NCBI GenBank assembly: GCA_015075515.1
Contig: JABTUE010000002.1
Location: 661,478-725,477 of the forward strand
DNA: 64,000 nucleotides
Source: Planctomycetota bacterium
GTDB taxonomy: Bacteria; Planctomycetota; UBA8742; UBA2392
Direction: 5' to 3'
Part shown: in pieces, positions 31,742 to 55,254 of the stretch
Numbering within the stretch: position 1 is the stretch's first letter
Layout: each line of letters begins with the position of its first letter
The notes under the pieces: model-generated
Told to the model about the DNA's origin: nothing
Databases searched by the model: none
What the model saw: the letters and a program-made list of their open reading frames with translations, nothing else
Position numbers and translations under genes: made by a program

Positions 31742-32688
31742 TGGCCCGGGTTCTGGTCACCGGCGGCGCGGGCTTTCTGGGCAGCCACCTGTGCGGGCGG
31801 CTTCTGGCACAGGGCCACCACGTCACCTGTCTGGACGACTTCAGCACCGGCTCTGCGGACAACCTGCGCGAGTTTGAAGCCCTCCCCGCGTTCACCCTGG
31901 CGCGCGGCGACGTGACCGAGCCCTTGACCGGTCAATACCAGCAGATCTATCACCTGGCCTGCCCGGCCAGCCCCGTGGCCTACCGCCGCGACCCCGTTCG
32001 CACCTGGCGCGTGGCGGCGCTGGGCACGCTGCGCGCGCTGGAACTGGCGCGCGATTGCGGGGCGCGTTTTTTGCTGGCCTCGACCAGTGAAGTGTACGGC
32101 GACCCGCTGGTGCACCCCCAACCCGAAGATTACCGCGGCAACGTGGACACCCAGTCGGTGCGCGCCTGTTACGACGAAGGCAAGCGCGCCGCCGAAACCC
32201 TGGCCGCCGACTTTCACCGCGTGCAAGGCACGGGCGTGCGCATCGCGCGCATCTTCAACACCTACGGCCCGCACATGGCGCCAAACGACGGCCGCGTGGT
32301 CAGCAGCTTCATCGCCGCGGCACTGGCCGGCGTGCCGTTGCAACTGGCCGGCGGCGGGCGCCAGAGCCGAAGCTTCTGCTACGTGGATGACCTGATCGGC
32401 GGCCTGGTCGCGCTGATGGAATGTAACGCGCCCGACGCGCACCAGCCCGTCAACCTGGGCAACCCGCACGAAATCACGATCCGCGAACTGGCCGAAACAA
32501 TCACGCGCCTGACGGGCTCAGGTTCGGCGCTTGTGGACGCACCCGCCGAACCCGCCGACCCGGCCCGGCGCTGCCCGGACATCCGCCGCGCGCGCGCGCT
32601 TGTCGGCTTTGCACCCGCCACCGGCATCGAGCAGGGCCTGGCTCGAACCATCGCCTGGGCGCGGGCTCAGGGCGCCAGCTCACGATAA
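31741..32688 (+). CDS. uxs: UDP-glucuronate decarboxylase / UDP-xylose synthase (extended SDR; UXS/ArnA-decarboxylase family).
   Basis: MARVLVTGGAGFLGSHLCGRLL (GxxGxxG). STSEVYGDP. Catalytic YDEGKR. 315 aa. TGATG start/stop overlap with wza. Confidence 0.8.
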   Translation: MARVLVTGGAGFLGSHLCGRLLAQGHHVTCLDDFSTGSADNLREFEALPAFTLARGDVTEPLTGQYQQIYHLACPASPVAYRRDPVRTWRVAALGTLRALELARDCGARFLLASTSEVYGDPLVHPQPEDYRGNVDTQSVRACYDEGKRAAETLAADFHRVQGTGVRIARIFNTYGPHMAPNDGRVVSSFIAAALAGVPLQLAGGGRQSRSFCYVDDLIGGLVALMECNAPDAHQPVNLGNPHEITIRELAETITRLTGSGSALVDAPAEPADPARRCPDIRRARALVGFAPATGIEQGLARTIAWARAQGASSR

Positions 32689-34823: not shown

Positions 34824-35965
34824 GCCCGGCCCTCCAGCAGCAGCCCGCGCCAGGCCGCATCGGCCCGCACCAGATCAAAGTGCTCGCGCGCGTGCCGCCA
34901 GGCCGCATGGCTCATGGCCTCCAGCCGCGCGCGGTCGGCAGACAGCGCCGACACATGCCCGGCCATCGCCTCAACGACGGCGTCTTCAGGCATCGCTTCG
35001 ACCAGCAGCGCGGCGCCTGGCGGCAGCAGTGCCAGCCCGCCCACGCGCGTGCACAACGGTACGGCGCCGCGAGCCATTGCCTCCATGACCGCCACCGGAA
35101 AGCCCTCGCGTTCGGATGTCAGCACCAGCACATGCGCCGCGGCGTACTCGGCGGCCAGAACGGCCGGGTCGGTCACCAGCCCGGCAAAGCGACAATGCCG
35201 CGCGTCGGCCTCGGGCATCGCCGCGCGCACGTCGCCCAGGCACGTCACCGCGGCATCCACACCCATTGCCGCCAGCCGCGCGGCCAGACGCCCCACCAGA
35301 TGCACGCGCTTTTCCGGTGTGGCGCGGCCGGCATACAGCACGCGCAGCGTGCCCGCGGGCTTTGCCGGCGGCGTATCGGGCACCTCGACGGCGTTGGCAA
35401 TGACCGTAACGCGACCGGCCAGATCATCCAGCCCGCGCGCGCGGTACAGGGCGGTCAGTTCGTCGCGCAGCAGCGGCGTGATCACCACCCGCGCGGCCAG
35501 ACGCCGCGCATGAGGCAGGCTGTAGTGTTCAAAGTTCACGCCGAAGTTGTGGAGCAGGTCCACGCAGCGCACGCCGTTCAGGTGCGGCAGCATGTCGTAA
35601 AAGAAATGGCTGAAGGCACCGAACACCGTGCGCACCCCGCCGCGCCGGATGCGCCCGGCCTGCAGCCCGGCCTGGAAGTACGCGCCCGGCCGGCGGCGCA
35701 GCCGGCCGCCCAGCATCACGACCGGCGCCACGGCCTGATAACGCGGCAGCAGCCCGCCATCGCGGGGCGTTTCCGTGAACCAGACCTCGGGACAGGCCTG
35801 GGCCACGGCGCGCACGATCTCGGCGTGCACGCGCTCGGCCCCGCCGACGTCGGGTGTGGCAAACACGCACACCAGCGGGGCCCGCACCGGCGGCACAAGC
35901 AGCGCGCACAGGCGCCCCAGGGCACCCAGCACCGCGCGCAAAGTCACCACAACCAGGCGCTTCAC
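34820..35965 (-). CDS. GT4 glycosyltransferase.
   Basis: 381 aa. SEREGFPVAVMEAMARGAVPL motif. ATGA coupling to both neighbours. Confidence 0.75.
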   Translation of the reverse strand: MKRLVVVTLRAVLGALGRLCALLVPPVRAPLVCVFATPDVGGAERVHAEIVRAVAQACPEVWFTETPRDGGLLPRYQAVAPVVMLGGRLRRRPGAYFQAGLQAGRIRRGGVRTVFGAFSHFFYDMLPHLNGVRCVDLLHNFGVNFEHYSLPHARRLAARVVITPLLRDELTALYRARGLDDLAGRVTVIANAVEVPDTPPAKPAGTLRVLYAGRATPEKRVHLVGRLAARLAAMGVDAAVTCLGDVRAAMPEADARHCRFAGLVTDPAVLAAEYAAAHVLVLTSEREGFPVAVMEAMARGAVPLCTRVGGLALLPPGAALLVEAMPEDAVVEAMAGHVSALSADRARLEAMSHAAWRHAREHFDLVRADAAWRGLLLEGRA

Positions 35966-37149
35966 AGGCCCATCTCCGTGCGCACGACTTCGGCCGTGCG
36001 ATCCCAGTCAAAGGCGTGCAGCCGCGACGCGAGATCGTCGGGGTCGAATTTCGGAAACGTCGCCGGGTTGGCCAGCGCACGGCCCCATTCATCGGCGTTG
36101 TGCGCCGCAAACGTCAGGTTCGGCCAGGCCAGCCGCTTCAGTTCGCGCAGCGGGCTGCACAGCACGGGCTTGCCGCAGGTGCTGAACTCGACCACGTTCA
36201 GGGGCGTGGCGTCTTCGGTTACCGGGCGCGGCACATAGGGGTGAACGCCGGCGTCACAGGCGTGAAGATACGCCGCGACTTCGTCGGGCTTTACCGGCCC
36301 TACGCAGTGCACGCCCTCGGCGGGCCCAAGCCGTCGCGGGCCGGCCACGCGGTCGCTGCCGGGCCCGACAACCAGCAACGCCAGTTCGGGCCGCGCCGCC
36401 CGCGCCACCAGCCAGGCATCCAGCAGCATTTCCATGCCGTCAAAGGCCATGCGATGGTTGCCGATGAAACCCACCACAAAACGCCCCTCAAGACCAAGGC
36501 GCGCGCGCACCCGCGCGCCCTGTTCGGGCGGGCATTGCAGCAGGGCCGCGCGAGCCGCGCCGTTGGGCGCATAGGCGGCCCGGCGGCCGGCCAGCTCTTC
36601 GGCCTGTTCGCACAAACTGTGGCTGCAGGCGCTCAGGGTATCGGCGCGGCGCATGGCGTCCTGCAGAAACCGGCGCCGCGAACGCGCCACCACGCCGCCG
36701 CGCCATTCGTCGTGAAAGTTGTCAATCACATCAAAGTGAACGCGATACTTCCTGCGTCCGGGCGCGGGCGGCAGAAAGAAAAACGGGTTGCCGTGAAACA
36801 CGTGCGTGCAGCCGAAACGTTCCACCAGCGCGGCAATGCGGCGGTTGTTGCCCCAGGCCGCCAGGCGGTTGAACAGCGGCCCCGTGGCCGGCCACACCGG
36901 CATGGTGACGCGCGTGACCTTGCCATCTTCCAGCACGCGCGTGCCGCCGAACGCCAGCCTGCGCCGCATGGCCAGCCGCGCGCCCAGGCTGTTGTCGGAG
37001 GTGTTGACGGCTTCGCTGCGGTCCAGCGCGAACACCGGCACGTGCTCGGCCACGCGCCGGGCGATTTCGACCTCGCGCACGCGCAGATCCGGCGCAAACA
37101 GCATGCGCCCGATCCACAGCACCGCCGGTTTTCGGCCCTGGGGCGGCAA
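35962..37149 (-). CDS. Glycosyltransferase (GT4-like).
   Basis: 395 aa. C-terminal PYVPRPVTEDATPLNVVEFSTCGKPVLCS resembles EX7E. ATGA coupling downstream. Confidence 0.6.
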   Translation of the reverse strand: MPPQGRKPAVLWIGRMLFAPDLRVREVEIARRVAEHVPVFALDRSEAVNTSDNSLGARLAMRRRLAFGGTRVLEDGKVTRVTMPVWPATGPLFNRLAAWGNNRRIAALVERFGCTHVFHGNPFFFLPPAPGRRKYRVHFDVIDNFHDEWRGGVVARSRRRFLQDAMRRADTLSACSHSLCEQAEELAGRRAAYAPNGAARAALLQCPPEQGARVRARLGLEGRFVVGFIGNHRMAFDGMEMLLDAWLVARAARPELALLVVGPGSDRVAGPRRLGPAEGVHCVGPVKPDEVAAYLHACDAGVHPYVPRPVTEDATPLNVVEFSTCGKPVLCSPLRELKRLAWPNLTFAAHNADEWGRALANPATFPKFDPDDLASRLHAFDWDRTAEVVRTEMGL

Positions 37150-37155: not shown

Positions 37156-39123
37156 CTAATCCTTTCTGGCGCGCGCGCCGCGCCACAGTTTCAGCAGCGG
37201 CCCGGGAACCAGCGCGCGCACCCCGGCCCGGCACGCCGCCCAGGGCCGCAACGGCGCCAGCCGCCACGCCGCACCCAGGCTGGCCAGCACCATGCCCTGG
37301 TTCTTGTACGCGCCCGCCAGACGCACAAGCTGGTCGGCGCGCGCCGCGCTGTCGGGCCTGCCCACGTGCGTCTGCTGCACGCGCATGGTCATCTCCAGAA
37401 CCTGCGCCAGCCGGCTTTGCGTCAGCGTACCGGCGTGCTCGGTCACCGTATACAGCACCCGCGCCAGCCGCCGCAGCCGCGTCAGACGCGACAGACGCAG
37501 CCACAGCTCGTAGTCTTCGGCCAGGTGGTACTGCGGGTTCACGCCCCCGGCCTGCTGCCACACCGAACGCCGGATCAGAAAGCACAGCCCGATCACGTTG
37601 CGTGACGCCAGTTCGTGCAGCGGCCCGGTCTGCACCACACGGCGCGCGCCAGACGCGTCGGCCAGTTCGTAATCGGCAAAAACCACGCCGGCCTCGGGGT
37701 CCAGCACCAGCTCGCGCGCCAGCGCGGCAATTGCGCCGGGCGCGAACAGGTCATCGTCGGCCTTCCACATCACCAGTTCGCCGTCGGCCACGGCCATGCC
37801 GGCATTGATCGCACCACTCAGGCCGGCGTTGGGCTGGTGGATCACGCGCACGCGATGGTCGGACTCAAAGGGCTTCAGGCGCCGTGCCGTGTCGTCGGTG
37901 CTGCCGTCGTTGACCACAATCAGTTCCAGATCCGGGTAGTCCTGCCCCAGCGTGTTGCGCACGGCGGCTTCGACCCAGTCCGCGCGGTTGTACGTGGGCA
38001 TGACGACGCTGACCTTGGGCAGCGGCGCGCCGGTAGCCAGCGCGTAGACGCCGGCCTCGCGCCGGCCGATCGTGGCCACGTCGTAGGCTTCGCTGGCGGC
38101 GCGGGCCGGCGCCGCCAGCCGCGCGCGCAGCGCGGGGTCGGCAATCGCGCCGATCGCGCGCGCGATGTCGGGCACGCTCAGCGGATCGAAGAGCAGACCG
38201 TCCCACTGGTCGGTAACAACCTCGTTCATCGGCGCGCGGTTGGATGTCAACACCGGCGTGCCGCAGGCCAGAGCCTCGACAATCGCCGTGCCGAAGCCCT
38301 CAAACAGGCTGGGCAGGACCAGCGCGTCGGCCCAGCGGTACCACGGCGGCAGCTCGACGTTAGGCACGGCATCAAGGTGCAACGCGAACCCGAGACGAGA
38401 CCAGTCGCGCGCGCTGCGCCCGATGTGCACCAGCCGCAGTTGCGGGTGAACCGCGCGCGCGCTTTGGCAGGCTTCCACCAACCGGTCCAGGTTCTTCTGG
38501 GGCACATCGCGGGCCACGCACAACAGGCACGGCGAGCCTTTTGGCCCCGCGGCCGTCGGGCCGTCAGGCGAAAACAGCGCGCGGTCTACACGGTTGTGCA
38601 CCGTAACCACACAGGCCGGATCGGCACCCTGCCCGATGGCCGCGCGGGCAACTTCGTCGCTGACGGCGATCAGCCGGCGCGCCCGGCGCAGCACCGCCGA
38701 GCACAACCCGATCACATTGTGCAGGCTGATCACCACCGGAACGCCCAGCGCGGCGGCAAGCTCGAGGCCCAGCCAGCCGCTCCAGCGCGCGCCGTAGGCC
38801 CGCACGCAGCAAGGCCCGAACTCGCGCGCCTGCGCCAGCCACGAAGGGGGCACACCGGGCCAGCCCGCGGCGATTTCGTCGCCCATGGGCGCGGCAAAGT
38901 CCGCCGCCTGTACCGTAGCCAGCCAGGCCTCCAGCGCGGGCTCGGGCGGCAGGGCCATGACGGGAATGCCGGGCCAGTCTCCGCCCCGGCCCCAGTCCAT
39001 GAGCGTAAACCCGTCAAAACAGCCCGCCGGGTTGTAGTACGCGGTCTTGACGGCCGCGTCGGCGCCCGCGGCGCAAAGCTCGCGGGGCAGTTCTTCGGTG
39101 ATCACCAGAAGGCGTCGGCTCAT
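37156..39123 (-). CDS. Bifunctional glycosyltransferase: N-terminal GT4 and C-terminal GT2.
   Basis: GT4: LPSLFEGFGTAIVEALACGTPVLTS. GT2: VSVVMPTYNRADWVEAAVRNTLGQDYPDLELIVVNDGSTDDT with DXD-like D/E residues downstream. 655 aa. Confidence 0.8.
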   Translation of the reverse strand: MSRRLLVITEELPRELCAAGADAAVKTAYYNPAGCFDGFTLMDWGRGGDWPGIPVMALPPEPALEAWLATVQAADFAAPMGDEIAAGWPGVPPSWLAQAREFGPCCVRAYGARWSGWLGLELAAALGVPVVISLHNVIGLCSAVLRRARRLIAVSDEVARAAIGQGADPACVVTVHNRVDRALFSPDGPTAAGPKGSPCLLCVARDVPQKNLDRLVEACQSARAVHPQLRLVHIGRSARDWSRLGFALHLDAVPNVELPPWYRWADALVLPSLFEGFGTAIVEALACGTPVLTSNRAPMNEVVTDQWDGLLFDPLSVPDIARAIGAIADPALRARLAAPARAASEAYDVATIGRREAGVYALATGAPLPKVSVVMPTYNRADWVEAAVRNTLGQDYPDLELIVVNDGSTDDTARRLKPFESDHRVRVIHQPNAGLSGAINAGMAVADGELVMWKADDDLFAPGAIAALARELVLDPEAGVVFADYELADASGARRVVQTGPLHELASRNVIGLCFLIRRSVWQQAGGVNPQYHLAEDYELWLRLSRLTRLRRLARVLYTVTEHAGTLTQSRLAQVLEMTMRVQQTHVGRPDSAARADQLVRLAGAYKNQGMVLASLGAAWRLAPLRPWAACRAGVRALVPGPLLKLWRGARARKD

Positions 39124-40382
39124 GTTACCCGCGCCGCCGGCGCCGCCACCTGCCAGCGCTGGCGCACGTCAATCAGTCCGCGCGCGTCACCCCACGCGGG
39201 CCGCACGCACTCCAGGCGCGCCGCGCCGTCACGCGCGTACAGGGGGTTCTGGTGCGCGCCGTCAAACACGTAGACCTTGCAGCGATAGCGGCCCGCCGGC
39301 AGATGCAGGGCTTCCACCTCCACTTCAACCGCGCCCGTGCCCTCAAGCGTGCGGCCGGCAAACGCGCCGCCGCTGTGCAGATGCACCAGATAGCCCCGCA
39401 TCGCCAGACCAAAACGCGGGTCATCGTGAAACAGCGACAACGCAAACATCGGGCCGTTCAGCGGTGCCCTGGCCTCGAAATGCAGGCGCACCGTCGCGCC
39501 CTGGCCGGGTGTTAAGGTTTCCAGTTCGGCACCGTCAGGGCCAAGCCACTGCACGCGCGTGATCTCGACCAGCGGGCGGCCCTGGACATCTGCGACAAAG
39601 CCGACCTCGTCGGCACGGGCGCCCGAACCGCCGCTGTCAGCCAGATAGCGTGCGACCACGTCGGCGGGTTCACCCAGCGCCGCGGCCCGGCCCTGGTTCA
39701 GGTACAGAACGCGATCGCAGGGCCGGATGTTGTGCATTTCGTGGCTGACCAGCACCACCGCCCCGCCGCCGCGACGCCGCGAGGCGATCCAGTCATAGCA
39801 CTTCACCTGAAACGCCGCGTCGCCCACGGCCAGAACTTCGTCCACCACCAGCACGTCGGGTTCGGCGTGGGCCGCAATCGCAAAGGCCAGCCGCGCGTAC
39901 ATGCCGCTGGAGTAATCCTTGACCGGCATGTCCATGAACTCGGCAAGTCCGGCAAACTCGACAATCGAATCGTACTTGCGCCGCACCTCGGCCCGGGACA
40001 GTCCCAGAATCACGCCATTGATGGCCACGTTTTCGCGCCCGGACAGGTACGGGTGAAACCCGGCACCCAGTTCAATCAGCCCGCCGGCACGCCCGCGCAC
40101 GGCCACAACTCCGGCGTCCGGGCGCAGAATGCGCGTAAGCAGCTTGAGAACCGTGCTTTTGCCCGAACCGTTGGGGCCGATGATGCCCAGCATCTCGCCC
40201 GGCCGCACCTGAAACGAAACGTCGCGCAGGGCAAAGAACTCGCCCGGCCGCAGGCCCTCGGCATCACGCCCGGCGGCCCACCGGCGCCAGGCACCGCTGA
40301 CCAGTTCCGCCAGCGTGCGCGCGCGACCGGTGCGCGCAAAGCGCTTGGACACGCCGGTGACCTCGACGCAGGGGGCGCTCAT
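39120..40382 (-). CDS. wzt: ABC transporter ATP-binding protein Wzt/TagH/KpsT type with a C-terminal ~170-aa extension (Wzt_C-like glycan-terminus-binding domain).
   Basis: Start ATG 40382 in an ATGA overlap with wzm. Walker A GPNGSGKST. ABC signature YSSGMYARLAFA. Walker B VLVVDE. The ~170 residues after the NBD (…VQWLGPDGAELETLTPGQGATVRLHFEA...RYRCKVYVFDG…) form a beta-rich extra domain. The upstream in-frame extension to 41114 is the antisense of wzm. Confidence 0.85.
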   Translation of the reverse strand: MSAPCVEVTGVSKRFARTGRARTLAELVSGAWRRWAAGRDAEGLRPGEFFALRDVSFQVRPGEMLGIIGPNGSGKSTVLKLLTRILRPDAGVVAVRGRAGGLIELGAGFHPYLSGRENVAINGVILGLSRAEVRRKYDSIVEFAGLAEFMDMPVKDYSSGMYARLAFAIAAHAEPDVLVVDEVLAVGDAAFQVKCYDWIASRRRGGGAVVLVSHEMHNIRPCDRVLYLNQGRAAALGEPADVVARYLADSGGSGARADEVGFVADVQGRPLVEITRVQWLGPDGAELETLTPGQGATVRLHFEARAPLNGPMFALSLFHDDPRFGLAMRGYLVHLHSGGAFAGRTLEGTGAVEVEVEALHLPAGRYRCKVYVFDGAHQNPLYARDGAARLECVRPAWGDARGLIDVRQRWQVAAPAARVT

Positions 40383-41164
40383 GCCAGCTCCCCAAAGCGT
40401 GGTTCCGCGCGCCGGAACCACAGCCAGCCCGACACCAGCACCAGCGCGCTGATCGCGGCGGACGCGCCGAATTCGGGCGCCAGGGTAAACTGCCCGCCGA
40501 CAATCAGCCCGCGGTAGGCGTCCAGAATCGGCGTCATCGGGTTCAGCCACGCCAGCAGCGCCAGCGAACCCTGGCGTGGAATCGGCCAGATCACTGAACT
40601 GGCGAACATCCACACCAGCACCACAAGCTGCAGAATGAACTGCACGTCGCGGTACAGGAGGTTTGCCGCCGACACCCACAGCGCCACGCCGCAGGCCAGC
40701 ACAAGCTGCACGCCGATCACCACCGGCACCAGCAGCAGCCCGGCCCCCGGCTTGACCCCGAACCAGGCCATCAACCCCGCGACCAGAACACCCGCCACGG
40801 CAAAATCCACCAGCGCCGAAAGTACCACGGAAAGCGGCAGCACCTCGCGCCGGAAGTAAACCTTGGTGACCAGGTTGCGGTTGTCGCTCAGGCTGCGCGC
40901 GGCGCCGGTCAGCACCGCGGCGTGGAACTGCCACGGCACCAGCCCGATGTACACAAACACCGGGTAAGGAACGGGCGCGGTGTCCAGCCGCGCCACGCGC
41001 GTGAACACCAGCGTGAACACCAGCATCAGGCACAGCGGCTGGGCCACGGCCCAGCCAAGACCCAGCAGCGTGTGCTTGTAGCGCACGCGCACCTCGCGCA
41101 TGCCCAGCATCCACGCCAGTTCGCGGCTGCGGAAAATTTCGCCAAGGTCGGCAAGCAGGGCCAT
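40379..41164 (-). CDS. wzm: ABC-2 type polysaccharide exporter permease (Wzm/KpsM/TagG).
   Basis: Start ATG 41164 (MALLADLGEIFRSRELAWMLGMREVRVRYKHTLLGLGWAV..., the canonical ABC-2 N-terminus). Six TM helices. 262 aa. Confidence 0.85.
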   Translation of the reverse strand: MALLADLGEIFRSRELAWMLGMREVRVRYKHTLLGLGWAVAQPLCLMLVFTLVFTRVARLDTAPVPYPVFVYIGLVPWQFHAAVLTGAARSLSDNRNLVTKVYFRREVLPLSVVLSALVDFAVAGVLVAGLMAWFGVKPGAGLLLVPVVIGVQLVLACGVALWVSAANLLYRDVQFILQLVVLVWMFASSVIWPIPRQGSLALLAWLNPMTPILDAYRGLIVGGQFTLAPEFGASAAISALVLVSGWLWFRRAEPRFGELA

Positions 41165-41216
41165 GTGTGCATTGTGCGAAACGCGCACGGCATGAACAGC
41201 CCGCCCGTCAGGGCCG

Positions 41217-44200
41217 TCAGTCGCCCCAGAACCAGGTGTCGGCAAAGCCGTCGGAATCCACGGCCGGGATCTCGCCGTCAATGAACCCGCCCACCATCAC
41301 CATGCGCGCGCCCACCGGGTCCCAGACCGCGCCGTGGCCCCAGCGCCGCTGCGGCTGCGCCACGGGCGGTGCGGTCAGCGACCACACCAGCGTGGCGACG
41401 TCAAGCACGTACAGGCCGTTGGCGGCCTCGCTGCCGAACCCGCCAAACAGCAGCACGCGGTGCAGGGCGGCGTCGTAGACCATGCTGTGGTAGTACAGCG
41501 ACGGTGGCGCGGTACCGGTCTTGGTCAGCGTGGTCCAGACCGGCGCCCCGGTCAGGTTCAGCGCGTGGAAGGTGCCCAGCGCGCCGCCGTTCAGCCCGCC
41601 GTACAGCAGCATGCGCTGGCCCGCCGGGTCGTACACCGCCGCCGCGGCCAGACGCGGCAGCGGCGCGTTGGCGGCCGCAATCTGCGACCAGACCAGCGTG
41701 TTCAGGTTCAGTTCGAAGGTGGTGTTCTGGATCGCGCCGGTTTCGCTGGCGCCGCCGAAAATCACCATGCGGCCGGGCCCGGCCAGAACCGCCACGTGCT
41801 GGGCGCGTCGGCCGGGCGAGGCGCCGGATGTGGTCAACAGCGTCCACTGTTCGGACCCGGGCGTAAGGTCCAGCGCCCAGACTTCGTCCGTAATCGTGCT
41901 GTTGGCAATGCCGGTGCGGCCGCCATACAGGATCATGCGCCCGCCCGCGGCGTCATAGACCATCGTGCCCGTGCGGCGCGGGCCGGGGCGCGGGCCGGTC
42001 ACGGCAAGCCGCGCCCAGGCCGGACGCACGGCATTGAGGTCAAGCTGCCACAGTTCACCGTCGTTGGCGCCGGCAAGGAACCCGCCGAACGCAATCAACC
42101 GGTGGTTGGCCGCGTCGCGTTCCACGTGCGAGTGCACCAGCCCCGGCGGCTGAAGCGGCGCGCCCGCAAGCTGCCAGCCCGCCGACGGGTTGGTCACGTC
42201 CAGGCGCCACAGGTCGCGCACGCCAGCCCCGGCCTCAAGCCCGAAACCGACCAGCAGGTCGTTGCCGTCCATCACCGCGTTGTGGCTGGTGCGCGCGCCG
42301 GGGCCGCCGCCGGGCAGTGTGACCGGCGCCCAGGCCGCCTGCGTGCCGCCAAGATCCAGATGCCACAGGTCGGCCGCGGCGCCGTTGCCGCTGTGGATCC
42401 AGACCGACGTGGCCGCGGCGTTGGCCGCCCAGGCAAAATGCGACCGCACGTTCATGGGCGTGCCGCCGACCTGCGAAATGTTCGTCCACGCACCGGCGGG
42501 GTTCAGGTCCAGCGCCCATACGTCGTTCAGACCCTTGAGCGAGTTGCGCCCGGCAAAGATCACCATGCGCTGACGAACGGCGTCATAGATTGCGCCATGG
42601 CCCTGGCGCACATCCGGCGACAGGCCGGGCAGATGCTGCACCCAGCCCGGCGCCGCGAAATCAAAGATCCAGACATCATTGTAGTTGGTGGTACCCAGAC
42701 CGCCGAACAACACTGCGCGGTCCAGCACACTGTCGTACACCAGCGTGTGGAAGATGCGCCCGGCGGGGCCGCCGGCTGCATGCTGGGTCCAGCTTGCGCC
42801 GGTGGCCGAAGACAGATCCAGTGACCACAGGTCGGCGTGCCGCACGCCCGAGGCATCCTGGCCGCCGCTGATCAACAGGCGACGGTTCAACGCGTCATAG
42901 GCACCGGCGGCGTACACGCGCGTGGCGGGGCCGCTGCCGGTCACGCTCAGACGCTGCCAGGCCGCGCCCGCCACGGAACGATCCAGCACCCATACATCGC
43001 CGAAGTAGCTGCTGGCATCCTTGCCGCCCCACAGCACCAGCCGGTCATGGAACGTGTCGTGAACCATCACCGCGCCCCAGCGCGCCGCCGGATAGGCGGT
43101 GACAGATGCCGGCGGTGTCCAGACCGGAACAGCGCCCAGCGCCAGGATACTCAGGCCGGTCATCGGCTGCGTGTTGACGTTCAGGCCGCCGTAGAAGATA
43201 CCCTCCAGGCGCGCCGGATCCATCACCGCCGAACCCTGCACGCGACCCGTGGCGGCGATTTCGTCCTGGGCCAAAGGAGTCCAGACGTGCTGGTTGGGAC
43301 CCTGCAGGTCCAGAATGAAGCCGTCCAGCCGCACAGTGCTGCCGTTGTAGCCGCTGCAGGTGATCAGCCGGTTGGCCGCCGTGTCGTGCAGATAACTGCT
43401 GAAGTAGCGCGCCCCCGGTGTACCCGTCGTGCTGACAGCAGACCAGGCCAGACTGGTCAGGTTCATCTGCCACACGTCGGACTGCGTGCCGGCGGTGGTG
43501 TGCCCGCCGTACACCACCATGCGGTTGCCCGCGGCGTCCAGCACCGCGGCGTGGCCGTTGCGACCCGGGCCGCCGGTGCTGATAGCGGCAGCGCCCCACA
43601 GGCTGGTGCCCAGGTCCAGCGCCCAGGTGTCGTTCAGATAGGTGCTGCCCAGGCCGCCGTGCATCAGCACACGGTTGTTGCCGGCATCCAGCACCAGCGA
43701 ATGGCCGTACCGCGCCGCCGGAATGCCCGGCGAGGCCGCGGCAATCTGTGTCCAGGTTTCGGTGCCCGCGCCCAGGCTGAGCTGCCAGGCGTCATTGAGC
43801 GCGCCGGAGTTGCCAAACCCGCCGAACACGATCATGCGCTGGCCCGCGGCGTCGTAGACGGCCGCTGCGTACTGGCGGCCCGCCGGTGTTGTGCCCGCCG
43901 GGTAAATACGGCGCCAGTACGGTGCGGCACCACGCTGGTACACCCAGGTTTCGTTGCTGCGGATCGAACCCTTGCGACCGCCGAAGATCACCATGCGGTC
44001 GTTGGCGGCATCAAACACCGCCACGTGGCCGAACAGCGGCACGCTTTGTTCGCCGGGCGTAAGGTGCTTGGCCCAGCCGCCGTCACGACTGAGCGCAAAC
44101 GGCGGGCTGAGACCCGGCGCGCCGGGCAGGGCACCGATAAACGGCTGCAACGTCAGTACATAGGCCGGGTCTGTCGCGTGGCGCTCGGTGGCGTAGGCGT

Positions 44201-47200
44201 CCCAGACAAACTCAAGGCTTGAGTTGGCCGGAATGCCGACGATCGTGTTGCCGGAAATTGTGCCGGTGCTGGTCCAGACCAGCACCGGCGGCCCGGCGTT
44301 GGCGCCGCCCGTGTAGGTAACAACTACGTCAATTGTGGTCAGCGGCGTGCCGTTGACCGTGGCGCTGACGCGCAGCGGCCCGCCGTCGTCGGGGCTGACT
44401 GTCACGCCGGTGACACTGCTGGCCGGCAAGGCATTGCCACTGACGGCAATGTCGTAGGTAGCTTCATCCAGATCATCACTGTCAATGTCGAGGTCAAACG
44501 ACCAGCCTCCGGCCGCAATCGGCGTGATGGTCACGTCCAGCGTGGCAGTACCCAAGGGCGACAGGTTGGTCGAGCTGAAGCTGCCCAGTACCACGTTGCA
44601 GTTGCTGTTGTTGGCAAAGCTGCGGCCGGTCAGGGTCAGGTCGGCCGAACCAAAGTTGCGGATCGTGTAGGTGATCAGCGTCGGCGTGCCGGAAACAGTG
44701 CCGGTCACGCTGTCGCTGCCGCCGTCGGCAATCGGGTTGCCCGCCGGGCGCTGCACGTCAATCTCGCCGCCGGGCGCGGCCGTGCCGCTGACCGCAATGT
44801 CGTAGGGGTTCTCGTCCACATCGTCGCTGGCAATGTCGAGATCAAACGACCAGGCCCCGGCCGCGATCGGCGTGATGGTCACATTCAGTGTCGCCGTGGC
44901 CGATGGAGCCAGGCTGGTGCTGCTGAACGTACCCAGCACCACGTTGCAGTTGCTGTTGTTGGCAAAGCTGCGGCCGGTCAGGGTCAACGTCGCCGTTCCC
45001 TGGTTGCGGATCGTGTAGGTAATCAACGTGGCCACACCGGCCACCGTACCGGTCACGCTGTCACTGCCGCCATCCACAATGGTCGTACCGGCCGGGCGTT
45101 CCACGTTGATCTCGCCGCCGGGCACGGCTGTGCCGCTGACGGCAATGTCGTAGGTACCTTCGTCGAGATCGTCGCTGAAGATGTTCAGCGTAAACGACCA
45201 GCCGCCGGCGGAAAGCGGCGTAATTGCCACGTTCAGTGTTGCCGTCGCCGCGGGGGCCAGGCTGCTGGAACTGAAAGCGCCCAGCGCCACGTTGGTGTTG
45301 AAAAGCGACGTCACGTTGCGGCCGGTCAAAGTCAACGTCGCCGTACCCTGGTTGCGGATCGTGTAAGTGATGATCGTGGCCGAGCCGGCGCTCGTGCCGG
45401 TCACCGTGTCACTGCCGCCATCCAGAATGGTCGTACCCGCCGGGCGCTCCACGTTGATTTCGCCGCCAACCTGAGCCGTGCCGCTGACAAAAATGTCATA
45501 GGTGGCCTCGTCCAGGTCGTCGCTGTCTATGTCGAGGTCAAACGACCAGCCACCGGCGGCGATCGGCGTGATGGTCACGTCCAGTGTTGCCGTGGCCGAC
45601 GGCGCCAGGCTGGTGGAACTGAAGCTGCCCAGCACCACGTTGCAGTTGCTGTTGTTGGCAAAGCTGCGGCCGGTCAAAGTTAACGTTGCCGTGCCCTGGT
45701 TGCGGATCGTGTAGGTGATGTTGGTGGGTGCCCCGGCCACCGTGCCGCTTACACTGTCACTGCCGCCATCGAGGATTGTCGTACCCGCCGGACGTTCAAC
45801 ATTGATCTCGCCACCGGGAGCAGCCGTGCCGCTGACAAAGATGTCGTAGGGCGACTCGTCCAGGTCGTCGCTGTCAATGTCGAGGTCAAACGACCAGCCA
45901 CTGGCGGCAATCGGCGTGATGGTCACGCCCAGTGTCGCCGTAGCCGACGGCGCGAGGCTGGTGGAGCTGAAGCTGCCCAGCACCACGTTGCAGTTGCTGT
46001 TGTTGGCAAAGCTGCGGCCGGTCAAGGTCAGCGTAACCGGGCCGGTGTTGCGGATCGTGTACGTGATGACAATCGGCGCGCCGGCGATGCTGCCGGTAAC
46101 GCCATCACTGCCGCCGTCGAGGATGGTCGTTCCCGCCGGGCGCTCGACGTTGATGTCGCCGCCGGGCGCTGCCGTGCCGCTGACAAAAATGTCGTAGGGG
46201 TTTTCATCCGTGTCGTTGCTGTTGATATCGAGATCAAACGACCAGAAGCCCGCCGCGGCAGGCGTGATTGTGACGGCCAGCGTGGCCGTGGCCGCCGGGG
46301 CCAGGTTTGTGGAACTGAAGGAACCCAAGGCGACGCCGCAGTTGACTTCGTTGGCGGTGCTGCGCCCCGTCAGTGTCAGTGTCGAAGAGCCCTGGTTGCG
46401 GATAGTGTAGGTAATCACCGTCGGCGCGCCGGCCACGGTTCCGCTCACGCTGTCGCTGCCGCCATCGGCGATGGTCGTGCCTGACGGACGTTCAACATTG
46501 ATCTCGGCGCCGGTGGTGGCGGTGCCGCTGACGGCAATGTTGTACGGGTTCTCATCGAGGTCGTCGCTGAGGATATTCAGGGTGAACGACCAACCGCCGG
46601 CGGCAACCGGCGTGATGCTTACGCTAAGCGTCGCTGTGGCACCGGGCGCCAGGCTGCCGGAACTGAAGGACCCAAGCCCGACACCGCAGTTGACCAGCGA
46701 CGCCGCGTTGCGGCCAGTCAGTGTCAGTGTTGCCGTACCCTGGTTGCGGATCGTGTAGGTGACAATCGTGGCCACACCGGCCACGGTGCCGGTCACGGTG
46801 TCACTGCCGCCGTCCACGATGGTTGTGCCGGCCGGGCGTTCCACGTTGATTTCGCCGCCTACCAGGGCCGTGCCGCTGACGGCAATGTCGTAGGGGTTCT
46901 CGTCGCTGTCGTTGCTGTCTATGTCGAGGTCAAACGACCACGCGCCGGCCGCCGTGGGCGTAACGGTAACGGTCAGCGTCGTCGAGCCGCCGGCGGCCAC
47001 AGTGGACGAGCCGAAGCTGCCCAGTGCCACACCACAGTTCACCAGGTTTGCAACGCTGCGCCCGGTAAGGTTCAGTGTGGAACCACCCAGATTCTGGATC
47101 GTGAATGTCACCGGCGTGCCTGCCCCGGCCACGGTACCGGTCACCGCGGTGCTGCCGCCGTCGGCGATGTTGGTGCCCGCCGGGCGCTGCACATTGATTT

Positions 47201-49547
47201 CGGGCGGGGCCAGAGCCGTGCCGCTGGCGTTGATGTCGTAGGGGTTCTCGTCCAGATCATCGTTGGCCAGGTGCAGGGCAAAACTGAACGCGCCCGCCGC
47301 CGTCGGCGTCACCGTGGCCTGCATGGTAGTGCTGCCGCCAGGAGCCAGGGGCGTCGCGCCGGGCGGGGTCAACACCACGCCGCAGTTCACAATGCCGTTT
47401 ACGGTAAACGCGCCCAGATTGATGCTGCCGGTGGCCGCCACGTTGCGCACAGTGTAGGTCAGAACCAGCGGCACACCCGCCACGTGCGTGCCCAGGGCGT
47501 CGTTGCCGTTGTCGGCAATGATTGTGCCCGCCGGGCGCTCAATCTGGATTTCGCCGGGCACACCGGTACCGGACACATTCACCGTGTAGCTGGGCACGTC
47601 GGGGTCGTTGCTGGCAAAAACCAGCTGGCACGAAAACGCGCCGGCCGCCAGCGGTGTCACCTGCACCTGAGCGGTCGTGGTTGCCGACGCCGCCAGCAGG
47701 GTACCCGACGGGTTTGTAGTCACGTTGACGCTACAATTGGTCGCGCCGCTGAACGAAAGCGCAGGGTTTCCCAGCAGCAGCCCGGTGCTGCCGATGTTGC
47801 GCAGCGTGTAGGTCAGGGTCTGCGGCGCGCCGGTGGGCACACTGCCCAGGGCTTCCGCGCCACCGGCGGGAATGATCGTGCCGGCCGGGCGCTCTACCTG
47901 AAGCCGTCCCAGAATTTCGCGGTCGCGGTCGGCCATAATCTGCGCCGCGGTGCGCGCATGGGCCCAGAAGCGGAACTCATCCACACGGCCGTCAAACGAC
48001 GTGGGAGTCCCCCCGCCATTTCGCATCACAAAGAGCTGCGCGTTGGCAAATGGAAACGTGTAGTTGATGGACTCAAATGCCTGTGTGCCGTTGGCATACA
48101 CCCGCAGGCCGAACACGCCCGGGTTGGAAACAATGGCAATATGCGTCCAGCCATTGTTGGCCAGGTTCACCCCGGTGGAGATGTCCTGGTCGCCGCCCGC
48201 CGGGCCGCTCTGGATGCGTAGTGTCGCGTTCTGGCGATACACCCGAAACGAGGTTCCGTCGCCGCAGATGGTCGTGGTGGCATTGCCCGATCGCCACACC
48301 CAGAACTCCAGTGTGAACTCCGGGCGCGGCAACTGCGTGCAACTGAAACCGGTGGGAAGGTTCGTGGTGGCCTGGACTGCAGATGCCCCAAGCCGCGCAT
48401 TGGCCGTTGTGGTCCAGGACACTGCGGCAAATGTGGCGGGATTATTCCCCCGGCCCGGCGATGCGTCATTGCGCGTGGTTGTACCTGTACCCTCGTTGAA
48501 CCGGTAATACAGCATCTCCGGTCGGCCCGTGTTCACCATGCCGTTGAACGTGAACGTATACGGGTTGGGCGATCGGTCATTGTTGATGTTCACCGTGAAC
48601 GTGAACTCGGCCTGGGCCGGCGTGACCTGAATCGTGAACGTCGTGGTGGCCCCCGGCGCGATCGTCGAAGGCTGCACCGTAACGTTGGCGGTTGCGCCGG
48701 TGATGCTTCCCAGAGTCACGGGCGTAAAGCTCACGTTGCCGGCGGGGCGCATGTTGCGAATCGTGAACGTGAAGTTTGACGCCACACCCGAGGCCACGTT
48801 CGTAAATCCGGCCAGACCCTGGTGCTTCACAAAGATGTTCGAAGAGTCAAAAACATCTATGTCCTGGGTAAGGAATGACGCGAACCGGTTGGCCTCAAGC
48901 TCGGCCTGGGTGCGCTGAACCGACCACAGCCGGAACTCATCCATTTCACCGCTGTAGGTCGCGGGCGAGGCGCCCTGCCAGTACAGCAGACCCATGGCGT
49001 TGGTGGTGAACGTGTTTGCCATGGTGCCTGTTACGCTGGTCAGACCGGGCGCCGTGGTTCCCCAGTACAAGGTCCAGGCGTTGGTGGCGTTGCGGGTGAC
49101 GGCAACGTAGCGCCAGGTGCCGTCGTTGTTGTTTGTGTTGGTGGACTGAATCGTACCCGCGCTGGTCTGCAACTCGATGCGGCCGTTGTTCAGCCACAGA
49201 CCGAAGTTCACGCTGTCGTTGACGAAGTCCTGATACCCGGTGCCCGTGGTGCGGAACCACAGTTCAATCGTCAGGGCCTGGCCGTTACGTTCGGCCAGCG
49301 AATAGCCCGTGTTCAGGCGCCGGTTCTGGCCAACGTTGTTGACTGCCGCCGGCGGAATCTGTGGCGTTGTGGTGTTCCACAATGGCGCGGCGCTGAAGGC
49401 ACCCTGGTTCCAGCCTTGGCCGGGTATGGCGTGGTTCTTGGCCGCGGCGCCGGATGTTTCGTCGAACTTGTAGTAGATGATCTGCGGCTGCGCGAAGCAG
49501 CCGGCGGCCAGCACCAGACATGACACCAGCAACCAGAGCTTCCGCAT
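41217..49547 (-). CDS. Giant secreted protein (2,776 aa). Architecture: LamG (concanavalin-like) - Ig-like repeat - LamG - ten tandem 116-aa Ig-like (ASH / choice-of-anchor-D-like) repeats - ~100-aa beta domain - ~950-aa C-terminal region of Kelch-type beta-propeller blades.
   Basis: Start ATG 49547 (MRKLWLLVSCLVLAAGCFAQP, a signal peptide). The upstream in-frame extension to 49736 lies in low-GC promoter DNA. LamG motifs: ALTIELWFRTT...EMDEFRLWSVQRTQAE and FTLEFWVWRS...VDEFRFWAHARTAAQI. Repeat consensus: EINVERPAGTTI.DGGSDSV.GTVAG...ITYTIRN.GTATLTLTGRSFANNSNCNVVLGSFSSTSLAPSATATL.VTITPIAAGGWSFDLDIDSDDLDE..YDI.VSGTA. More than 14 Kelch-like blades in the C-terminal region (e.g. RYGHSLVLDAGNNRVLMHGGLGSTYLNDTWALDL; HTLVYDSVLDRAVLFGGLGTTNYNDVWIFDF). 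Confidence 0.85.
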   Translation of the reverse strand: MRKLWLLVSCLVLAAGCFAQPQIIYYKFDETSGAAAKNHAIPGQGWNQGAFSAAPLWNTTTPQIPPAAVNNVGQNRRLNTGYSLAERNGQALTIELWFRTTGTGYQDFVNDSVNFGLWLNNGRIELQTSAGTIQSTNTNNNDGTWRYVAVTRNATNAWTLYWGTTAPGLTSVTGTMANTFTTNAMGLLYWQGASPATYSGEMDEFRLWSVQRTQAELEANRFASFLTQDIDVFDSSNIFVKHQGLAGFTNVASGVASNFTFTIRNMRPAGNVSFTPVTLGSITGATANVTVQPSTIAPGATTTFTIQVTPAQAEFTFTVNINNDRSPNPYTFTFNGMVNTGRPEMLYYRFNEGTGTTTRNDASPGRGNNPATFAAVSWTTTANARLGASAVQATTNLPTGFSCTQLPRPEFTLEFWVWRSGNATTTICGDGTSFRVYRQNATLRIQSGPAGGDQDISTGVNLANNGWTHIAIVSNPGVFGLRVYANGTQAFESINYTFPFANAQLFVMRNGGGTPTSFDGRVDEFRFWAHARTAAQIMADRDREILGRLQVERPAGTIIPAGGAEALGSVPTGAPQTLTYTLRNIGSTGLLLGNPALSFSGATNCSVNVTTNPSGTLLAASATTTAQVQVTPLAAGAFSCQLVFASNDPDVPSYTVNVSGTGVPGEIQIERPAGTIIADNGNDALGTHVAGVPLVLTYTVRNVAATGSINLGAFTVNGIVNCGVVLTPPGATPLAPGGSTTMQATVTPTAAGAFSFALHLANDDLDENPYDINASGTALAPPEINVQRPAGTNIADGGSTAVTGTVAGAGTPVTFTIQNLGGSTLNLTGRSVANLVNCGVALGSFGSSTVAAGGSTTLTVTVTPTAAGAWSFDLDIDSNDSDENPYDIAVSGTALVGGEINVERPAGTTIVDGGSDTVTGTVAGVATIVTYTIRNQGTATLTLTGRNAASLVNCGVGLGSFSSGSLAPGATATLSVSITPVAAGGWSFTLNILSDDLDENPYNIAVSGTATTGAEINVERPSGTTIADGGSDSVSGTVAGAPTVITYTIRNQGSSTLTLTGRSTANEVNCGVALGSFSSTNLAPAATATLAVTITPAAAGFWSFDLDINSNDTDENPYDIFVSGTAAPGGDINVERPAGTTILDGGSDGVTGSIAGAPIVITYTIRNTGPVTLTLTGRSFANNSNCNVVLGSFSSTSLAPSATATLGVTITPIAASGWSFDLDIDSDDLDESPYDIFVSGTAAPGGEINVERPAGTTILDGGSDSVSGTVAGAPTNITYTIRNQGTATLTLTGRSFANNSNCNVVLGSFSSTSLAPSATATLDVTITPIAAGGWSFDLDIDSDDLDEATYDIFVSGTAQVGGEINVERPAGTTILDGGSDTVTGTSAGSATIITYTIRNQGTATLTLTGRNVTSLFNTNVALGAFSSSSLAPAATATLNVAITPLSAGGWSFTLNIFSDDLDEGTYDIAVSGTAVPGGEINVERPAGTTIVDGGSDSVTGTVAGVATLITYTIRNQGTATLTLTGRSFANNSNCNVVLGTFSSTSLAPSATATLNVTITPIAAGAWSFDLDIASDDVDENPYDIAVSGTAAPGGEIDVQRPAGNPIADGGSDSVTGTVSGTPTLITYTIRNFGSADLTLTGRSFANNSNCNVVLGSFSSTNLSPLGTATLDVTITPIAAGGWSFDLDIDSDDLDEATYDIAVSGNALPASSVTGVTVSPDDGGPLRVSATVNGTPLTTIDVVVTYTGGANAGPPVLVWTSTGTISGNTIVGIPANSSLEFVWDAYATERHATDPAYVLTLQPFIGALPGAPGLSPPFALSRDGGWAKHLTPGEQSVPLFGHVAVFDAANDRMVIFGGRKGSIRSNETWVYQRGAAPYWRRIYPAGTTPAGRQYAAAVYDAAGQRMIVFGGFGNSGALNDAWQLSLGAGTETWTQIAAASPGIPAARYGHSLVLDAGNNRVLMHGGLGSTYLNDTWALDLGTSLWGAAAISTGGPGRNGHAAVLDAAGNRMVVYGGHTTAGTQSDVWQMNLTSLAWSAVSTTGTPGARYFSSYLHDTAANRLITCSGYNGSTVRLDGFILDLQGPNQHVWTPLAQDEIAATGRVQGSAVMDPARLEGIFYGGLNVNTQPMTGLSILALGAVPVWTPPASVTAYPAARWGAVMVHDTFHDRLVLWGGKDASSYFGDVWVLDRSVAGAAWQRLSVTGSGPATRVYAAGAYDALNRRLLISGGQDASGVRHADLWSLDLSSATGASWTQHAAGGPAGRIFHTLVYDSVLDRAVLFGGLGTTNYNDVWIFDFAAPGWVQHLPGLSPDVRQGHGAIYDAVRQRMVIFAGRNSLKGLNDVWALDLNPAGAWTNISQVGGTPMNVRSHFAWAANAAATSVWIHSGNGAAADLWHLDLGGTQAAWAPVTLPGGGPGARTSHNAVMDGNDLLVGFGLEAGAGVRDLWRLDVTNPSAGWQLAGAPLQPPGLVHSHVERDAANHRLIAFGGFLAGANDGELWQLDLNAVRPAWARLAVTGPRPGPRRTGTMVYDAAGGRMILYGGRTGIANSTITDEVWALDLTPGSEQWTLLTTSGASPGRRAQHVAVLAGPGRMVIFGGASETGAIQNTTFELNLNTLVWSQIAAANAPLPRLAAAAVYDPAGQRMLLYGGLNGGALGTFHALNLTGAPVWTTLTKTGTAPPSLYYHSMVYDAALHRVLLFGGFGSEAANGLYVLDVATLVWSLTAPPVAQPQRRWGHGAVWDPVGARMVMVGGFIDGEIPAVDSDGFADTWFWGD
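44440..47900. repeat. In-frame DNA tandem array inside the giant gene: ~10 copies of a 348-bp unit. The central copies are near-identical.
   Basis: The same antisense mini-ORF (MSRSNDQPPAAIGVMVT...LRPV.VNVAVPWLRIV) recurs in the track at 44485, 44833, 45181, 45529, 45877, 46225, ~46573 and ~46921. That is an exact 348-bp period (116 aa x 3). The protein repeats 6-9 differ at only a few residues. Confidence 0.85.
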
Positions 49548-49609
49548 ACCGGCCCGTCCCAGCATTATTGGCGTCGCAGGATGCCCGAACACGAAAATGC
49601 AGCAGGCCA

Positions 49610-49700
49610 ATATTCTATACCTGCGGCCCCACCGGCGCCACAATTGCACTGCGCCATTTTGAATTGTTGTCTTGCTATATCGCCTATTTTGCACATAACA
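49610..49700 (-). promoter_or_regulatory. Candidate sigma70-type promoter or promoters and 5' leader of the giant gene, in a low-GC island.
   Basis: On the minus strand: TTGTGG -N18- TATAGAAT (complement of 49613-49644). A second candidate is TTGTTA -N16- TATAGC (complement of ~49670-49700). A 5'-UTR inverted repeat TATTGGC...GCCAATA flanks ~32 nt upstream of the ATG. GC here is far below the window average. Confidence 0.35.
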
Positions 49701-49810
49701 ATACGCACGATGCTGGGGTCCGATAATCCCAAACAACGCCTTCGCCTGCGCGAGGATAGGCCAACCAGGCCAGCGATATGTCGTTTTGACTAGTTTCGGA
49801 TCGCCTGCGC

Positions 49811-51676: not shown

Positions 51677-51783
51677 ACCCGGCACCGACCTACTTTCGCC
51701 TTTCGACTATCATCGGCCCCAAGGGCTTAACTTCCGAGTTCGGAATGGGATCGGGTGTGACCCCTTGGGTATGGGCACCGAGA
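51677..51783 (-). rRNA. rrf: 5S ribosomal RNA (short, ~107 nt).
   Basis: The minus-strand read CUCGGUGCCCAUACCCAAGGGGUCACACCCGAUCCCAUUCCGAACUCGGAAGUUAAGCCCUUGGGGCCGAUGAUAGUCGAAAGGCGAAAGUAGGUCGGUGCCGGG aligns closely with bacterial 5S (cf. B. subtilis GGUCACACCCGUUCCCAUACCGAACACGGAAGUUAAGC). Helix I pairs with G-U wobbles. Helix IV is shortened. Confidence 0.85.
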
Positions 51784-51944: not shown

Positions 51945-54890
<2,946 letters not shown>

Positions 54891-55221: not shown

Positions 55222-55254
55222 CCTGTGCCGCAGGGATTTCGGCCAGCGGCAGGG

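Follow-up and report, generated by a model that had tools for sequence, protein, structure and literature searches.

Genes for large surface proteins have been described beside glycan-export clusters in the Gram-positive bacteria Geobacillus stearothermophilus NRS 2004/3a and G. tepidamans, where the surface-layer (S-layer) genes sgsE and sgtA lie near slg clusters with wzm-wzt, wsaC-F and wsaB (PMC2943079). These clusters have overlapping glycosyltransferase (GT) genes, terminal methyltransferase activity, a lipid-carrier glycan and export by an ATP-binding cassette (ABC) transporter; they contain the O-oligosaccharyltransferase WsaB (Wzy_C) and the initiating enzyme WsaP, and the S-layer gene is transcribed separately (PMC2943079). 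Here, a 64,000-nt stretch of a Planctomycetota metagenome-assembled genome (MAG; contig JABTUE010000002.1), hereafter the window, was found to carry a gene for a predicted secreted protein of 2,776 aa (the giant gene) directly ahead of a set of wzm, wzt and GT genes. The likeness to the slg loci lies in the gene of a large secreted surface protein near a wzm/wzt and GT cluster. However, the slg loci encode WsaB, WsaP and a lattice-forming S-layer protein, whereas in the window locus no such transferase or initiating enzyme was found, the spacing is operon-like and the product is a putative Kelch/Ig fibre. S-layer glycoproteins of Paenibacillus are also glycosylated en bloc by an oligosaccharyltransferase.

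A Gram-negative precedent is RsaA of Caulobacter crescentus, an anchorless surface protein which, according to PMC6978808, is held non-covalently on the O-antigen of lipopolysaccharide. The window protein would resemble it in its Gram-negative host, in having no membrane anchor and, by analogy, in retention on a glycan, the mechanism favoured here; RsaA, in contrast, has no Kelch, LamG or Ig domains, and glycan binding by the giant protein is a proposal. RsaA leaves the cell by type I secretion, and the part that binds is its N-terminal domain.

The glycan genes recall the ABC-transporter O-antigen pathway (Escherichia coli O8/O9a; Aquifex aeolicus Wzm/Wzt) in the order of wzm-wzt followed by single and double GT4 enzymes. 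The E. coli O8/O9a order is wzm-wzt-wbdD-wbdA-wbdB-wbdC, and we know of no described O-antigen cluster headed by the gene of a giant secreted protein. Methyltransferase genes in orthologous operons are as expected for a terminal cap that is read by Wzt (PMC9445017), whereas the window operon has no methyltransferase gene and a Wzt_C match under the cut-off. No ranked paper of the literature search joined Kelch with Wzm/Wzt, and the term 'choice-of-anchor D' returned unrelated papers only. An earlier sequence-only reading of this DNA had called the locus a new coupling of a giant adhesin-like protein to a Wzm/Wzt pathway, which is too strong in view of the Geobacillus slg loci (PMC2943079) and of RsaA on O-antigen (PMC6978808). 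Surface protein genes beside wzm/wzt are already known (PMC2943079), as are all the domain families. What appears to be new is a protein family defined by a small beta-sandwich (the 'mid' domain) and a triple Kelch base, its near-constant slot heading Wzm/Wzt operons of a Gram-negative phylum, and the swapping of heads on a fixed base.

The giant gene and the parts of its product are as follows.

41217-49547, minus strand: giant gene, from ATG at 49547 to TGA at 41219-41217, 2,776 aa
49488..49547, minus strand: putative signal peptide, aa 1-20, ending in CFA before QPQ, signal-peptidase-I type; n-h-c layout and A-x-A/QP junction common to orthologues
47913..49487, minus strand: head, with LamG at aa ~21-290, Ig-like domain at ~291-395 and LamG at ~396-545 (Laminin_G_3, best match 404-537, E = 1.9e-25)
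44403..47912, minus strand: stalk of ten Ig-like repeats, aa 546-1715, choice-of-anchor-D / HYDIN-ASH type (NF012200, PF22544)
44058..44402, minus strand: mid beta-sandwich, aa 1716-1830, family-specific; AlphaFold2 (AF2) model with blocks of predicted local distance difference test score (pLDDT) of 84-98
41220..44057, minus strand: Kelch base of 18 blades, aa 1831-2776, ending in TWFWGD (PF24681, E = 7.5e-130)

The longest open frame of the gene reaches back to a TTG at 49736. The identical public protein, MBE7491760.1, is encoded on a 987-kb contig and annotated 'MAG: choice-of-anchor D domain-containing protein [Planctomycetes bacterium]'. Pfam matches comprised Laminin_G_3 (two stretches), HYDIN_VesB_CFA65-like_Ig, ASH, DUF1573, CARDB and several Kelch families; NCBIfam NF012200 (choice_anch_D) matched five stretches with a score of 163.6 bits, well over its cut-off of 45, and eleven Ig-like domains exceeded the cut-offs of NF012200 / PF22544. 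The sequence-only reading had drawn much of this anatomy correctly: the 2,776-aa open reading frame (ORF), the order of signal peptide, LamG, Ig, LamG, ten Ig repeats, beta-sandwich and Kelch blades, and a 116-aa repeat unit all agree with the Pfam and NCBIfam matches and with repeat starts spaced 116-118 aa apart. Its beta domain of ~100 aa corresponds to a well-modelled sandwich of ~110 aa, its more than 14 Kelch-like blades rose to 18 in the AF2 model, and its failure to see a C-terminal sorting signal was borne out, no Pfam sorting domain being found. Assignment of the Ig repeats to a characterised adhesin family with an unrelated function would have told against that reading; they belong instead to the uncharacterised choice-of-anchor-D / HYDIN-ASH class.

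At the DNA level the stalk appears in Tandem Repeats Finder as a 348-nt period of 8.1 copies with 76% matching (44435-47262). Its 1,170 residues include 24% Ser+Thr and not a single Lys, and every repeat has the acidic motif D-x-D-S-D-D-L-D-E-x-P-Y-D, which may bind calcium; the net charge of the whole protein is about -83. GC-content along the gene is 0.60-0.66 in the head and Ig-repeat part and ~0.69 in the Kelch part, against 0.69-0.73. A foreign origin of the gene, considered for its lower GC-content, was set aside, the dip coinciding with the head and Ig-repeat part.

The base of the protein sets the family apart. The mid domain had no Pfam match and no significant fold match in the PDB (best E = 2.7e-3, TM-score at most 0.47, generic Ig-like folds only). 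A profile of it, run against 1.84 billion representatives at 50% identity, matched no more than 11 of them at E <= 1e-10, and a metagenome scan with it returned one locus. Among the proteins gathered in this analysis it was always paired with the Kelch region, and the distance from its start to the C-terminus was about 1,066-1,120 aa in every full-length member. The AF2 model of the mid domain and Kelch region had a mean pLDDT of 87.3 and a predicted TM-score (pTM) of 0.78, and 18 four-strand blades were counted by hand in its DSSP string. In Foldseek searches, the six-bladed propellers of KLHDC2 and LZTR1 each aligned over ~320-345 columns at a target TM-score of ~0.8. Kelch beta-propellers are built of recurring four-strand blades that close into a ring of six or seven, and the region conforms to this; the blade count and fold alignments of the model suggest three six-bladed propellers in a row. 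KLHDC2 and LZTR1 share the six-bladed Kelch fold, but they are single, intracellular eukaryotic substrate receptors, whereas the window protein would be a secreted bacterial protein with three tandem propellers. These fold matches were uninformative on function, because only eukaryotic protein-binding propellers were returned. Eisenbacteria-type MAGs commonly encode secreted multi-Kelch proteins of 750-1,500 aa, many of which have a type IX secretion system (T9SS) domain, but they lack the mid domain.

The N-terminus read from the ATG at 49547 is MRKLWLLVSCLVLAAGCFA followed by QPQ. A lipoprotein anchor through the Cys of LAAGC was considered and rejected: the signal peptide is of the signal-peptidase-I type, since this Cys is absent from the orthologues, which have a conserved A-x-A/QP instead. 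No lipobox, transmembrane segment or Pfam C-terminal sorting domain was found in the giant protein. Its Ig domains match the choice-of-anchor D family (NF012200/PF22544) and its NCBI name is the same. Members of that family, by the NCBI naming convention, carry varied C-terminal sorting signals; in contrast, the giant protein has no signal of the PEP-CTERM, T9SS C-terminal domain or LPXTG type, and the mid domain and Kelch base stand at that end. In other phyla, homologues with LamG and choice-of-anchor-D domains end in the T9SS domain PF18962, in the position that the Kelch base takes in the giant protein. The terminal TWFWGD is a conserved feature of the whole family and is found even in the unlinked member P0011 described below. 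It was rejected as a sorting signal, for it resembles the recurring blade motif D-x-W-x-L-D and ends the last blade in the model; we interpret it as helping to close the last propeller.

The linkage between the giant gene and wzm is conserved. The sequence-only reading would have been refuted by homologues that never neighbour glycan genes, but with one exception they do: in 19 loci the C-terminal core of the giant protein was encoded immediately ahead of wzm, or ahead of a single methyltransferase gene that wzm follows. In these relatives the gap to the next gene was at most 79 bp or the genes overlapped, and no terminator was seen. The full-length homologues of the same architecture (P0002, P0003, P0004, P0006 and P0007), 35-71% identical to the window protein, all lie between a divergent recJ and glycan genes, with gaps of 11-43 bp, and P0074, P0194, P0196 and L089 have the same giant-wzm linkage. 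A scan with a Wzm alignment over one genome per GTDB species gave 80 loci, which were checked by tblastn for the giant core. Eighteen of them, with Wzm 57-71% identical, come from labelled Planctomycetota MAGs, apart from two labelled only as 'uncultured bacterium' and 'uncultured Planctomycetaceae'. The core lay directly upstream in 11 of these 18; one (L012, 6212-9871) has a different extracellular-type protein of 1,219 aa (GEVED, LTD/Lamin Tail, He_PIG Ig) upstream of wzm, one has too little upstream sequence to judge, and the other five are taken up below. The core was found in none of the 62 loci with Wzm at most 52% identical (Phycisphaerae, Gemmatimonadota, Acidobacteriota and others). 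By these searches the family is rare and confined to one Planctomycetota clade.

The linkage persists while the gene content of the operon changes. Methyltransferase genes are inserted in the operons of L001, L002, L007, L008 and L019-L022 (one to four genes in orthologous operons), and Epimerase_2 and GT9 genes are variably present. The giant proteins change as well, with lengths from 1,614 to more than 4,400 aa; in the shortest, P0074, the core begins at about residue 541. Heads of the LamG-Ig-LamG kind occur in the window, L001-L004, L007, L016, L018 and L089, and are 38-77% identical to the window head. A proprotein-convertase P-domain head takes their place in L019, according to Pfam, and in L020-L022, L008, L011 and P0011, according to N-terminal sequence similarity. 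Locus L001, with a LamG head, and L008, with a P-domain-type head, are equally near the window in the core, the mid domain being 73% identical in both. From the sequences, the giant proteins appear to be secreted modular fibres, in which a swappable head and a variable Ig stalk are set on an invariant base of mid domain and Kelch propellers.

The glycan genes downstream of the giant gene are the following.

41165..41216, minus strand: spacer between the stop of the giant gene (41219-41217) and the start of wzm (41164), 53 bp by the count of the sequence-only reading
40379..41164, minus strand: wzm, ABC-2 permease, 261 aa, PF01061 (ABC2_membrane) E = 7.2e-17
39120..40382, minus strand: wzt, ATPase with C-terminal extension, 420 aa, ABC_tran (PF00005); ATGA overlap with wzm
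37156..39123, minus strand: GT4+GT2 fusion glycosyltransferase, 655 aa; ATGA overlap with wzt
35962..37149, minus strand: GT4 glycosyltransferase, 395 aa from a TTG (start uncertain); 6-nt gap upstream
34820..35965, minus strand: GT4 glycosyltransferase, 381 aa; GTGA overlap
32667..34823, minus strand: GT4+GT4 double glycosyltransferase, 718 aa; ATGA overlap

The unit ends with the double GT gene, because the next genes (a Wza-like Poly_export gene and an epimerase gene) converge on it. The sequence-only reading was right about the co-orientation and the 53-bp distance between the giant gene and wzm-wzt. Its five GT genes are four GT ORFs with six GT domains, and of the ATGA coupling that it saw throughout, the wzm/wzt, wzt/GT and last junctions stand, the others being a 6-nt gap before the TTG and a GTGA. 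With PF01061, PF00005 and their ATGA overlap, the permease and ATPase genes form the translationally coupled pair of a Wzm/Wzt pathway. The window Wzm is 56-66% identical to those of L001-L004. The Wzt_C match of the window reached 24.5 bits, under the cut-off of 30.4, while those of the orthologues are clear. The nearest solved structures to the window Wzt are 6amx, 8dku and 7k2t (E ~1e-57), which we take to be the Aquifex aeolicus O-antigen Wzm/Wzt transporter, ahead of TagH/TarH. The operon of L002 has a GT9 (heptosyltransferase-family) gene and adjoins a lipid-A acyltransferase gene. The exported polymer is probably O-antigen-like, as judged from these nearest Wzt structures and from the GT9 and lipid-A acyltransferase genes of L002. 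A WaaL ligase and an initiating phosphoglycosyltransferase, which a lipopolysaccharide O-antigen would call for, were not found in the scanned ORFs of the 64-kb window and may be encoded elsewhere.

Transcription signals were sought in the giant gene/wzm spacer and in the intergenic region upstream of the giant gene.

49548..49810, minus strand: recJ-giant intergenic region, 263 bp, presumed promoter region; recJ is divergent

No T-tract terminator was found in the spacer, and its sequence folds no better than shuffled sequence (z = -0.49). Over 17 kb of L004, both strands together have a single sigma70-like site, TTGACT-17-CATAAT, which lies immediately ahead of the giant gene; from this gene to the GT genes the plus strand showed no terminator. 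The site aligns at a conserved position in L002, L003, L016 and L018 too, five loci in all. The sigma70 scan of the window gave no site near the giant gene start, and only weak promoter candidates are present there, such as TTGTTA-16-TATAGC at 49701-49674. One transcription unit is plausible because of the tight spacing, the gap without terminator or structure and the single conserved promoter-like site upstream, and a single operon of the giant gene and the wzm-wzt-GT genes is the simplest reading of the sequence. Independent transcription of the giant gene, which would have told against the sequence-only reading, thus found no sign in the terminator-free gap or in L004, where the sole sigma70-like site is upstream of the giant gene.

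Two further elements were noted in the recJ-giant intergenic regions. The sequence TTTGyGAACAnnCTTTCCAC is common to all eight aligned regions (window ~49806-49826, alignment columns 157-177) and may serve as a regulator site or belong to the recJ promoter. In L004, at ~1800-1870, the sigma70-like promoter is followed by a GC-rich hairpin, GGCGCCAC-CTGTGCG-GTGGTGGCGCC, which precedes the codon where the giant gene probably starts. Its version in L003 is GGCGCCGTCA...TGACGGCGC, and it is also present in L002, L016 and L018 (alignment columns ~450-480), where base pairing persists despite different stem sequences; neither the window nor L001 has it.

The giant protein and the exported polymer probably form one surface structure, because the pairing of giant gene and glycan operon recurs in almost all of the few relatives. 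In the mechanism that we propose, the giant gene and the wzm-wzt-GT genes would be transcribed as one unit whose products build this structure. The giant protein would be exported by Sec and its signal peptide cleaved, leaving it with no lipid, transmembrane or C-terminal sorting anchor. The downstream GTs would assemble a polysaccharide on undecaprenyl diphosphate, and Wzm/Wzt would export the polymer, probably O-antigen-like. The mid domain and Kelch base would then bind the exported polysaccharide non-covalently, so that the fibre would be held on the cell with its head outward. We favour this reading, a secreted fibre held on its co-expressed glycan by the Kelch base, tentatively, with a probability of about 0.4. 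The 1,219-aa protein of L012 argues for it, as the slot upstream of wzm evidently takes large repeat proteins, and the missing anchor signal, the constant base and the glycan genes encoded alongside support it indirectly. A bolder form, which we regard as rather doubtful, is that the beta-sandwich and triple six-bladed Kelch constitute a previously undescribed polysaccharide-dependent anchor of Gram-negative Planctomycetota, co-operonic with its receptor glycan, on which heads and stalks are swapped; such an anchor would be likened in function to SLH domains, which bind secondary cell-wall polymer, or to the N-terminal domain of RsaA.

Several observations weigh against retention on the glycan. 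In the MAG SJ126 the family member P0011 (L005) is not adjacent to wzm/wzt, and a similar wzm operon on another contig (L015) has no giant gene; L015 is one of the five remaining close-Wzm loci of the 18 (L010, L015, L023-L025), in all of which wzm comes first, next to a divergent gene, and no giant gene is present. In total, six similar wzm operons lack the protein. Since recJ is equally syntenic in this narrow clade, part of the conservation of linkage is plain inheritance. Members of the LamG subgroup agree better in the sequence of the head than in that of the Kelch region (77 vs 49%, 62 vs 38% and 52 vs 38% identity), a poor fit to a conserved anchor with a variable tip. No binding site or lectin signature was identified in the base: the Kelch folds match eukaryotic protein-binding propellers, and the mid domain is uninformative. 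Finally, a protein of ~285 kDa would have to cross the outer membrane, and it could be periplasmic instead.

The same points lend themselves to a reading by descent, in which the giant gene simply sits between recJ and an O-antigen-type operon and the two products share at most a promoter and co-expression, with no direct contact. This stays serious because recJ, a gene of unrelated function, shows the synteny to the same degree, the clade is narrow (RecJ 65-79% identical) and each partner exists alone, as the broken linkage in SJ126 and the operons of L010, L015 and L023-L025 without a giant gene illustrate; neither protein has a domain that demands the other. We nevertheless consider it unlikely, for adjacency has outlasted the gain and loss of methyltransferase, epimerase and GT genes and the replacement of whole heads, the gaps remain at most 79 bp while the giant protein falls to 35% identity, and the slot in L012 is filled by another large repeat protein. 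That replacement also fits an arrangement of target protein followed by its glycan, in which an O-oligosaccharyltransferase encoded outside the locus would transfer the Wzm/Wzt polymer en bloc to Ser/Thr residues of the giant protein. The S-layer genes sgsE/sgtA near slg clusters with wzm/wzt are a direct precedent for such glycoprotein cargo (PMC2943079), the Ig stalk is 24% Ser+Thr, and the orthologous operons have methyltransferase genes. Seven of the nine matches to D-[ST]-[AILVMT], a Bacteroidota-type O-glycosylation motif, fall in the stalk, which is weak evidence.

The key enzyme of the cargo reading was nonetheless not seen. The slg clusters hold their transferase, WsaB/WsfB, inside the cluster (PMC2943079), but no Wzy_C-type (PF04932) oligosaccharyltransferase or ligase was found in the scanned ORFs of the window or in the called genes of L001-L004, L088 and L090. 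The Ser/Thr-rich stalk is the least constant part of the protein, some members such as P0074 being much shorter, and the invariant Kelch base has only 12.5% Ser+Thr. The precedent S-layer genes, moreover, are transcribed on their own (PMC2943079), whereas the spacing here is tight. We therefore judge glycosylated cargo quite unlikely. Of the alternatives left by the sequence-only reading, cargo or a lectin-like organiser of the polymer, the protein-glycan linkage common to both is conserved, while the cargo form lacks its key transferase in the scanned loci. An enzymatic role in glycan processing, with the Kelch propellers or LamG domains modifying the polymer, periplasmic or already surface-exposed, for example as a lyase, oxidase, mutarotase or chain trimmer, seems highly improbable. 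Sugar-active Kelch propellers do exist in bacteria and fungi (NanM mutarotase and galactose oxidase), and Pfam places LamG in the concanavalin-A-like lectin/glucanase superfamily. However, no catalytic family was matched in Pfam or NCBIfam, the fold matches are six-bladed protein-binding propellers with NanM and galactose oxidase outside the best 50 PDB matches of the Kelch core, the columns that never vary hold the structural Kelch residues G-G, W, R and D, and ten Ig repeats in a stalk are what one expects of a fibre rather than of an enzyme.

How Planctomycetota assemble and retain surface structures, and what their many giant genes are for, is little understood. If the Kelch base does dock on the glycan, it would represent a new means by which Gram-negative cells keep anchorless fibres on their surface and a clean case of modular head exchange on a fixed base. 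If the giant protein is instead glycosylated cargo, ABC-transporter-dependent protein O-glycosylation, known from Gram-positive S-layers, would gain an example in a Gram-negative phylum. In both cases the operon offers a concrete, testable protein-glycan pair, within the bounds of a small family from uncultured MAGs only, common domains and a general idea that has precedents in print.

The operon is adjoined at 20440-32688 by another polysaccharide locus, one of Wzx/Wzy style.

20440-22602, minus strand: TPR+Peptidase_C39_2 protein
24745-26154, minus strand: MBOAT O-acyltransferase
26167-27342, minus strand: GT4
27258-28757, minus strand: ORF with nine transmembrane segments, no family match; could be a polymerase or ligase candidate
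28890-30971, plus strand: protein with two transmembrane segments resembling a polysaccharide co-polymerase
30968-31741, plus strand: Wza-like Poly_export protein
31741-32688, plus strand: epimerase

Two further ORFs of this locus have no family match; Pfam and NCBIfam gave none for the ORF with nine transmembrane segments, the co-polymerase-like ORF and three other ORFs. The TPR+C39-like protein (20440-22602) has a 52%-identical orthologue in L005 (22726-24399), 8 kb downstream of P0011. This residual synteny suggests that the wzm operon moved out of, or into, the ancestral arrangement.

Just beyond recJ lies a complete ribosomal RNA operon on the minus strand (51677-57045), with 5S at 51677-51782, 23S at 51925-54884, two tRNAs at 55150-55331 and 16S at 55519-57045; it accounts for a dip of the GC-content to 0.55-0.58. 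At the other end of the window, a second large repeat protein (1-2616, minus strand), which runs off the window, has at least six CarboxypepD_reg / SdrD_B-type domains and is adjoined by an NPCBM-domain protein (2662-4068, plus strand). A 1,151-aa fusion of major facilitator superfamily (MFS) transporter, acyltransferase and AMP-binding enzyme (5544-8999, minus strand) resembles proteins of the lysophospholipid transporter / acyl-ACP synthetase kind. A Ser/Thr protein kinase (10334-11761, minus strand) lies near a 931-aa protein (12868-15663, minus strand) with an N-terminal FHA domain and a C-terminal CAP (cysteine-rich secretory protein) domain.

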